This document shows, piece by piece, positions 29,565 through 30,348 of a stretch of 64,000 nt of DNA. Each line of letters opens with the position of its first letter. Position 1 is the first letter of the stretch. This DNA is from an uncultured bacterium (GTDB lineage: Bacteria; Muiribacteriota; Ozemobacteria; Ozemobacterales; Ozemobacteraceae): NCBI GenBank assembly GCA_937949615.1, contig CALEDQ010000018.1, forward strand, positions 76,161 through 140,160. The letters are read 5' to 3'. The notes below the pieces were generated by a model, which worked only from the letters and a program-made list of their open reading frames with translations, was not told the origin of the DNA and did no database searches. A program made the translations under genes and the position numbers.

Positions 29565-30348
29565 ACGGAACCACGAACCTGTAAGTCTCTAATTCCGTTT
29601 GATCGGCAGTTTTACTGCCGATCAAACAGGAGATTTATCTTTTCAGAAGGATCGAAAATGGCAGAGAAGCTTGTTATAACTTTCAATGCGGCTGTAACCG
29701 AAAAATACCTTGAAATGGCGGCTGATAAAACCAGATCAGAGGTAGATGCCGATTGCTGCCCATCCGGGGTATCGATATTGGCGGGCCATGGGGTTCGACT
29801 GCTTATTTTATGAGAGGTAAAGAAACAATCAAACTCGGAGACGTCGACGTCGAATTTGTGGATCGTTAAACCCCAAAAACAGCAATTCGGCGGCAGGAAA
29901 GCAAAAAATATACAATTTTTGCGTAATTTTGCTCTCATTTTATGCAGAAAATGCTTTTTTTGTATAAAAATGCAAACCGGCAAAGTAACCCCAAAAACCA
30001 GTCTGGGAATTTTTCCCTGCAAAATTATTTTACAGAATCGTGTAAAGGAATTTTTCCCTGTCGTTGTATTTTTACCAGACAGACGACATTTTTGTCGCAC
30101 AATTTAACATAATGCAGCGACGCCAATGGCGTTTTATAAATTCTTCGGCCTGGCTGTATGCGAGATTTTTCACAATGCGGTCAGCTGCAAAAGCGTTAGA
30201 ACAGACCTAATACCAGTCAGGTATTTTAACCAGAGCAAACGGGTATAACTCTTGCTTGGTTTTAATGCAGTATTATTTTTAATATTATTTTACAGACAGA
30301 TTAGAAACATTAAAAGAAAAAGCTGTATAAACGCGGGGGGGGTGGACA
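29565..30348. promoter_or_regulatory. AT-rich ~780-bp noncoding island with repeated motifs (two GGAAtttTTCC palindromes 41 bp apart, repeated aaccccaaaaac and tattttacag motifs)
   Basis: AT content far above flanking genes; ORFs here are low-complexity; palindromes at 30006..30019 and 30047..30060. Confidence 0.5.
29598..29626 (+). terminator. Hairpin, possible terminator after epimerase gene
   Basis: Perfect 13-bp inverted repeat tttgatcggcagt / actgccgatcaaa with 3-nt loop; weak T-tract. Confidence 0.45.

Follow-up and report, generated by a model that had tools for sequence, protein, structure and literature searches.

What turns on a small XRE-family regulator gene that lies beside a bacterial homologue of the major vault protein (MVP), and what is the AT-rich DNA in front of it? 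We addressed this question for positions 29565-30348 of the window, by which we mean the whole 64,000-nucleotide stretch of DNA analyzed here, from an uncultured Ozemobacteraceae bacterium. A sequence-only reading of the window had described these positions as a single AT-rich noncoding island against a background of ~55% GC. The AT richness was confirmed, with 40% GC over 29565-30348 and 37% over 29870-30348, and the background turned out to be 51.3% over the whole window. The single island did not hold. The flagged stretch is two ordinary things adjoining each other, namely a broken small protein gene in a lineage-specific block on the left and a conserved control region of the XRE gene on the right (30003-30348), and the left part (29582-29986) is unrelated to that control region. 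For the right part, we propose enhancer-type sigma-54 control of the monocistronic XRE gene by this cis-regulatory DNA, an interpretation of the sequence to which we give about an even chance of being correct.

We compared twelve orthologous XRE loci of Riflebacteria (Ozemobacteraceae) and gathered some ten different upstream sequences. The relatives were Candidatus Riflebacteria/Ozemobacteraceae genomes from metagenome assemblies. Group A comprised the window with L001-L006, L018 and L019, and L007 with L013 and L015; group B comprised L008, and L009 with L014; and group C comprised L010 with L020, L016 with L017, L011 with L012, and L021. In groups A and B, the XRE proteins were 89-95% identical, and the upstream DNA was 65-75% identical compared to 70-80% at the third codon positions of the XRE gene. 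Conserved islands of 5-9 nt stood between spacers that drift at about the synonymous rate, and the invariant runs were TTTTCCC, GCAAA, TTTTACA, GTAAAGGA, TTTTTCC, TGTCGCAC, ATTTTTCAC, GGGTAT and ATTATTT. The homology with L007, L009, L014 and L018, which have different DNA further upstream, began exactly at the first palindromic box (box 1) and ran to the XRE ATG. In group C (63-69% identity), the boxes, a GG-N8-TTGCT element and one following block were the main conserved parts; the DNA between box 3 and this element could not be aligned, and the part corresponding to 30100-30240 was lacking. Conserved islands within neutrally drifting spacers would be the pattern expected of protein-binding sites. 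Furthermore, GGGAA of box 1 was changed to AAGAA in L007 and L018, on one arm only, which breaks the palindrome without compensation and therefore favors protein recognition over a hairpin. The suggestion of a multi-operator regulatory region is thus retained for the right-hand 345 bp, where the palindromes and the TTTTACA repeat are near-invariant and the spacers drift, and is given up for the left part.

The element GG-N8-TTGC(T/G) was found 69-94 nt before the XRE ATG in all twelve loci (Table 1). Its GG, an A two bases later (-22) and TTGC were invariant, and the spacer, although variable in sequence, had the same length throughout. Between box 3 and the ATG, group C showed only two well-conserved blocks, which were this element and ACATTATATT just downstream of it. 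Sigma-54 promoters follow the consensus TGGCAC-N5-TTGCW, in which the spacing between GG and GC is the defining geometry. Transcription of the XRE gene would accordingly be expected to start near 30267 from a -24/-12 promoter of the sigma-54 (RpoN) type at 30241-30256, with a predicted leader of ~82 nt. Scans for sigma-70 promoters on the plus strand upstream of the XRE gene found none in the window, L016 and L009.

The use of sigma-54 promoters in this clade was assessed from consensus sites elsewhere in the window. GGCAC-N5-TTGCW had four matches compared to 0.45 expected, a number that none of 100 shuffles reached, and two of the four were intergenic, 105 and 80 nt before start codons. The site at 46603-46620 is a perfect sigma-54 consensus (TTGGCACAACATTTGCT) and was conserved in L024-L026 as TGGCATGAACTTTGCT or TGGCATGATATTTGCT, 93-96 nt upstream of orthologues at 76, 65 and 56% identity. 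This enrichment and conservation are good indirect evidence, at the level of sequence, that RpoN promoters work in the clade. Further perfect sites were located at 15113-15129, 54694-54710 and 63186-63202, of which the one at 15115 lies between genes, 105 nt ahead of the gene of a 193-aa secreted or membrane protein (15233-15814). We also noted a leader at 46643-46674 (CCCGGAGCAACTCGTCAGAGCAAACCGTCCGG), downstream of the promoter at 46603-46620, which precedes the genes of a secreted 202-aa protein and of a BMC-domain protein (47440-47778). It was unchanged in L024 and L025, its closing stem co-varied in L026 (CTGGAG...TCCAG), and it had no match in Rfam; it may be an undescribed cis-regulatory RNA. 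Searches of the literature turned up no work on sigma-54 in Riflebacteria or on how MVP genes of bacteria are regulated.

The other conserved elements are palindromes, whose positions were counted from the -12 C at 30255. Two exact 14-mers (GGAATTTTTCCCTG) were found at 30006-30019 and 30047-30060, 41 bp apart, as the sequence-only reading had stated, and among 1000 dinucleotide shuffles of 29565-30348 only 0.2% had an exact direct repeat of at least 14 nt. The two 14-mers overlap boxes 1 and 2, of the form GGAA-N3-TTCC. Box 3 holds a different palindrome in the window; at its position, group C has a third GGAA-N3-TTCC box followed by CGCAC (CACGGAAATTTTCCCTCGCAC in L010, GAAATTGTCGCGCA in L011), and groups A and B have CGACATTTTTGTCGCAC, with TGTCGCAC invariant. 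GGAA-N3-TTCC-like boxes in group C were centered at -175/-134/-94 in L010, at -173/-133/-93 in L016, at -173/-132 in L021, and at -133 in L011, which has GGAGAAATTCTCC at -177. Every lineage therefore has two to three boxes spaced 38-41 bp, with three in L010 and L016 and, in the window, two plus the different palindrome. The positions relative to the -12 C agreed within 2 bp between L010 and L016. Overall, the distance from the boxes is 94-244 bp to the promoter-like element downstream and 170-340 bp to the XRE ATG. The idea that the motif might define a regulon was not borne out in the 64-kb window, where GGAA-N3-TTCC was not enriched (3 matches compared to 1.74 expected) and the third match lies inside a long open reading frame (ORF). 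In L015, a ~245-bp insertion with inverted-repeat ends, resembling a miniature inverted-repeat transposable element, lies at ~2650-2895 (window ~30243) between GATAAATGG and GTATAAATCTTGC, immediately 5' of the -24 element, and shifts the boxes to -448 and -489.

Further palindromes lie between and downstream of the boxes. The repeat reported earlier as tattttacag was found as AAAATTATTTTACAGA at 30021-30036 and AATATTATTTTACAGA at 30281-30296, with the shared motif TTATTTTACAG; these copies overlap two 17-bp palindromes of the pattern TGYAA-N7-TYACA. GCAAA and TTTTACA of the distal palindrome were invariant in the six group A and B sequences compared, and counterparts between the boxes were TGCAAAAAATTTTTACA in L016 and TGAAAAAATTTTTTACA in L010. 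The proximal palindrome was perfect (TGTAACATTATTTCACA) in L008, L009, L018 and L019. The mini-palindrome between boxes 2 and 3 corresponded to TTTTTTACC or ATATTTTTACCC in L016 and L011. Block TGCGAGATTTTTCACA, which has the look of a CRP/FNR-type site (TGYGR-N6-TCACR), was present in groups A and B only, with ATTTTTCAC invariant. The arms that flank it varied yet stayed complementary, as GGTCG/CGACT in L018 and L019, TGGCCG/CGGCCA in L007 and GGCCTTAT/ATAAGACC in L009, and L008 had no flanking inverted repeat. The palindrome centered at -38 was AATGCCGGCAGGGCATT in L009, at the same position with both arms changed. Resemblances of the palindromes to TyrR, TnrA/GlnR, Rex and CRP boxes are not claimed; in some cases the spacing was 1 nt off. 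T-tract phasing was considered as a sign of intrinsic curvature and dropped, the positions being not clearly in phase at 10.5 bp.

These elements suggest how the gene might be switched on. Sigma-54 holoenzyme requires an AAA+ enhancer-binding activator bound upstream. Boxes 1-3 would be the likely sites of a candidate AAA+ activator, because sigma-54 needs one and the boxes are the only upstream elements conserved in all groups. Their spacing of 38-41 bp, about four helical turns, would place them on the same helix face, and an activator oligomer on the boxes could loop to the promoter-bound holoenzyme. The box distances in group C (-94 to -175) are typical for enhancer sites. The two TGYAA-N7-TYACA copies, the second of them ~20 nt after the predicted start, are candidate repressor operators, possibly for the XRE protein itself.

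Several observations weigh against this proposal. The boxes of groups A and B at -203 and -244 are far upstream even for enhancers, and 13-bp boxes are short for the typical sites of activators or helix-turn-helix dimers. The -24 region (GGGTAT, TGGAAY) departs from the clade consensus TTGGCAY, GGGTATAAY in groups A and B holds a -10-like TATAAY, and in L011 and L021 TTGC can be read as a -35 element with TATTAT 16 nt downstream. Six-frame translations of the window and the relative loci contained neither an rpoN gene nor an activator motif (GAFTGA, ESELFGH, RpoN-box). The recognition helix of the XRE protein and the boxes are both invariant, and binding of the boxes by the XRE protein would be equally compatible with this. 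Finally, the palindromes at 30152-30186 and 30209-30225 co-vary between their arms, which a pure protein-site model does not predict.

The strongest rival takes the GGAA-N3-TTCC boxes as autoregulatory operators of the XRE protein, bound by cooperative dimers on the same face with possible looping, from a promoter of the sigma-54 or another type; we consider it rather unlikely. It agrees with the XRE gene being the only gene downstream and with the occurrence of the family only together with this upstream region. The helix-turn-helix GIPxxALDLLEKSGAKLR is invariant across proteins that are 63-95% identical, and the box core is conserved over the same range. In addition, arrays of two or three palindromic operators are the classical arrangement for Cro/CI-type repressors, and the XRE protein has weak similarity to 434 Cro. 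However, the boxes lie 94-244 bp from the only conserved promoter-like element and do not overlap it, unlike usual autorepressor operators; the 17-bp palindrome at 30278-30294 does lie at about +20. A distance of only ~8 bp between half-site centers is short for a helix-turn-helix dimer, and the XRE protein could not be the activator if the promoter is of the sigma-54 type. The promoter might instead belong to another sigma factor, with TTGCT as a weak -35 or TATAAY as a -10 and with the palindromes bound by conventional activators or nucleoid proteins. L011 (TTGCTA-16-TATTAT, the only hit of its sigma-70 scan, reusing the same TTGC) and L021 (TTGCTG-16-TATTAT, by inspection) would fit, as would TATAAC, TATAAA, TATGAT or TATAAT overlapping GGG in groups A and B. 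However, the best sequences 16-17 nt after TTGC in groups A and B are TATTTT, CATTTG or ATTTGT, group C has no TATAAY at -24, and the three plus-strand scans mentioned above were empty. Only the GG-N10-GC reading fits all twelve loci, and we regard a promoter of another type as improbable.

An RNA-level explanation was weighed in the same way. The conserved 345 bp could be transcribed into a structured RNA, as a long 5' leader or as an independent small RNA, with short U-rich-loop hairpins and possibly linked to MVP like vault RNA. The plus strand indeed folded better than shuffles (z = -3.2), and the inverted repeats at 30152-30186 and 30209-30225 keep their complementarity with sequences that differ between lineages. 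However, the minus strand folded nearly as well (z = -2.9), as DNA palindromes would, and this likeness of the two strands points to palindromes at the DNA level. The RNAalifold covariation term was -0.29, with most predicted pairs never varying. The changes in box 1 are not compensatory, the islands of 5-9 nt stand in spacers drifting at a neutral rate, the part at 30100-30240 is wholly lacking in group C, and no promoter was found upstream of the boxes. Rfam 15 gave no match at the gathering score in the whole window, vault RNA included, and chance-level matches only for 29300-30900 at E<=10. The earlier suggestion of a small RNA or vault RNA locus thus found no support, and a structured RNA appears very improbable. 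Its most specific form, in which 30003-30260 would be transcribed as a multi-hairpin noncoding RNA that works together with the MVP-like protein and would be the prokaryotic equivalent of vault RNA, with stems at 30152-30186 and 30209-30225, seems barely plausible. Local hairpins may nevertheless form at the repeats flanking TGCGAGATTTTTCACA and at the -38 palindrome, given the co-variation of their arms.

Comparison with known systems places the XRE upstream region among ordinary bacterial control regions in kind, with a new box motif, GGAA-N3-TTCC. Well-known enhancer-dependent sigma-54 systems are NorR, with three sites at norV, and NtrC at glnAp2. Like them, the XRE region has GG and GC 10 nt apart at a fixed distance before the gene and two or three palindromic sites ~100-250 bp upstream on one helix face, and it lacks a -35/-10 promoter. 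Unlike them, its -24 region is GGGTAT or TGGAAY instead of TGGCAC, no activator gene lies nearby, and the dependence on sigma-54 is a prediction. We know of no activator site that GGAA-N3-TTCC matches. A small helix-turn-helix gene that follows repeated palindromes, one of them near the predicted start, also recalls the OR1-OR3 arrays of phages 434 and lambda. However, those operators are ~20-24 bp apart and overlap the promoter, as opposed to the boxes here, which are 38-41 bp apart and far upstream; furthermore, the XRE locus has no divergent partner gene and is chromosomal and syntenic, not part of a prophage. With vault RNA and other Rfam families, the only likeness is the MVP-like gene nearby, as there is no Rfam match and the conservation follows the pattern of protein-binding sites.

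The unit under this control region consists of the XRE gene alone. The exact XRE protein was found on 22 metagenomic contigs, and its narrow family comprises 7 clusters, at 63-93% identity. The protein has weak matches to the 434 Cro and 3kxa entries of the PDB, and its AlphaFold2 model (predicted local distance difference test score, pLDDT, of 54) was too poor to use. A run of G in the ribosome-binding region is 8 G long in the window, L001, L004 and L006 and 7 G long in L002, L003 and L005; this difference may come from assembly noise or reflect a homopolymer of variable length that alters the start-codon spacing. The neighbors named by the sequence-only reading, namely the NlpC/P60 peptidase, the epimerase, the XRE gene and the convergent MVP gene, were all found. 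The MVP gene follows convergently wherever the sequence extends past the XRE gene. Its promoter is of a separate sigma-70 type and almost invariant in all lineages, and the GGAA boxes and the 17-bp palindrome are absent from it; the two genes do converge, with no boxes shared between their promoters. The GC-rich hairpin between the two genes looks like a two-way intrinsic terminator, and the weak matches to the Rfam family STnc40 on both strands arise because they fall on this hairpin.

Table 1. Features of the XRE locus and its surroundings (positions in the window; centers relative to the -12 C).
Feature	Positions	Strand	Sequence and remarks
DUF819 gene			neighbor
NlpC/P60-SH3b peptidase gene			neighbor
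L-Ala-D/L-Glu epimerase gene	28476-29564		stop codon 29562-29564
Hairpin	29597-29627	+	perfect 14-bp stem, 3-nt loop; arms 29597-29610 / 29614-29627, 100% complementary; just after epimerase stop
Small gene	29658-29869	+	73-aa protein with CC motif (DADCCPSG); here pseudogene or truncated allele
Tail of inserted block	29869-29998		AT-rich; bounded by AACCCCAAAAAC copies 29869-29880 and 29987-29998
Box 1	30005-30017		GGGAATTTTTCCC; center -244
Distal 17-bp palindrome	30018-30034		TGCAAAATTATTTTACA; pattern TGYAA-N7-TYACA
Box 2	30046-30058		AGGAATTTTTCCC; center -203; 41 bp from box 1; GTAAAGGA and TTTTTCC invariant
Mini-palindrome	30066-30075		GTATTTTTAC; between box 2 and box 3
Box 3	30084-30097		palindrome CGACATTTTTGTCG, then CAC (to 30100); center -164.5; 38.5 bp from box 2
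Block	30159-30174 (30152-30186 with flanks)		TGCGAGATTTTTCACA; inverted repeat GGCTG 30152-30156 / CAGCT 30182-30186
Palindrome	30209-30225		AATACCAGTCAGGTATT; center -38
Candidate sigma-54 promoter	30241-30256	+	GGGTATAACTCTTGCT; GG 30242-30243, GC 30254-30255, 10 nt between
Promoter element, window, L003, L018, L019			GGGTATAACTCTTGCT
Promoter element, L007, L015			GGGTATAAATCTTGCG
Promoter element, L008			GGGTATGATTTTTGCT
Promoter element, L009			GGGTATAATTTTTGCT
Promoter element, L010			TGGAATATTTCTTGCT
Promoter element, L016			TGGAATAATTCTTGCT
Promoter element, L011			AGGAACAAATCTTGCT
Promoter element, L021			TGGAACAAATTTTGCT
Proximal 17-bp palindrome	30278-30294		TTTAATATTATTTTACA; about +20 from predicted start
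G8 run, ribosome-binding region	30335-30342	+	just before ATG 30349
XRE gene	30349-30684	+	111 aa; C-terminal Cro/434-like helix-turn-helix, ~50-aa N-terminal extension; Pfam HTH_3 E = 2.7e-5
Terminator-like hairpin	30709-30740		GCGCAGGGGTTCAA ... TTGAACCTCTGCGC; GC-rich; A-run before, T-run after; between convergent XRE and MVP genes
MVP-shoulder protein gene	30761-33241/33307	-	convergent with XRE gene
MVP gene promoter	within 33242-33361	-	canonical sigma-70 TTGTAT-17-TATAAT and AGGAGG ribosome-binding site; almost invariant in all lineages
CorA gene			neighbor

The left part of the flagged stretch had been taken to lack a credible ORF, which proved wrong. A plus-strand small gene starts at 29658 (ATG) with its original stop at 29867-29869, and sister strains carry it intact as a 73-aa protein (MAEKLVITFNAAVTEKYLEMAADKTRSEVDADCCPSGVSIKIDIGGPWGSTAYFMRGKETIKLGDVDVEFVDR at the equivalent of 29658-29869). 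The intact ORF was found in L002, L003, L004, L006 and L008, and a 63%-identical homologue was found in L022 in an unrelated context. Between L002 and L008, the codon differences were 8 synonymous and 1 nonsynonymous. Judged by these comparisons, the gene is real, because it is intact in relatives, its differences are biased to synonymous ones, and it has a homologue in L022. The protein had no family match in Pfam, NCBIfam or PADLOC. In this strain, the gene is disabled by a 10-bp deletion (ATCGATAAAA) between ATCGATA direct repeats (junction 29771-29777), and the frameshift leaves a 51-aa ORF (29658-29813). The deletion is common to the window, L001 and L005, and its position between direct repeats suggests replication slippage. 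As the full form occurred on 11 contigs and the truncated form on 9, we read the truncation as a natural polymorphism rather than a sequencing error. Other ORFs did not stand: the 162-aa minus-strand ORF and the plus-strand ORFs of 40-56 aa in 29940-30250 were not conserved, the ATG at 30126, for example, being missing in L007.

Between the epimerase stop and the small gene, a hairpin (29597-29627) without a following U-tract was observed. Its stem is kept in L008, with one compensatory change (T-A to C-G) and two changes that pair as G.U only on the plus strand. The hairpin would thus act at the RNA level, since these G.U changes pair on that strand only, and in the transcript it probably lies either at the operon's 3' end or ahead of the small gene.

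The duplicated motif that had been noted earlier was found as AACCCCAAAAAC at both ends of the tail (Table 1), and a third related copy, AACCACGAAC, lies at 29569-29578; L008 shares this three-copy arrangement. The whole left block is missing in L007 and group C, where the first box follows the epimerase stop within 20-60 bp. L010 and L016, which lack the small gene, show only one AACCACAA(C)AAA, and it adjoins the first box directly. The left block would thus be an insertion that duplicated its target site. A remnant of acquired DNA, as once proposed for the stretch, is therefore an apt description of the left 430 bp only, an insertion in some lineages that carries the small gene, and does not apply to the rest. 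In L009, L014 and L018, the epimerase and small genes are replaced by a type I restriction-modification hsdR gene whose end abuts box 1 (window ~30003). Insertions or rearrangements seem to have occurred repeatedly at the left edge of this box. In L018, the distal half of the region resembles that of L007 and the proximal half is identical to that of L019, which suggests recombination within the region.

The annotation of this locus is corrected by these results, in that 212 of the 784 bp (about a quarter) are a selectively constrained small protein gene with intact and broken natural alleles. With the sigma-54-type promoter, the GGAA-N3-TTCC array at 38-41 bp and the 17-bp palindrome as search patterns, complete Riflebacteria genomes can be screened for a regulon and for the proteins that bind these sites. 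If correct, the proposed sigma-54 control would give a first testable picture of how a regulator beside a bacterial major vault protein homologue is switched on in this uncultured phylum.

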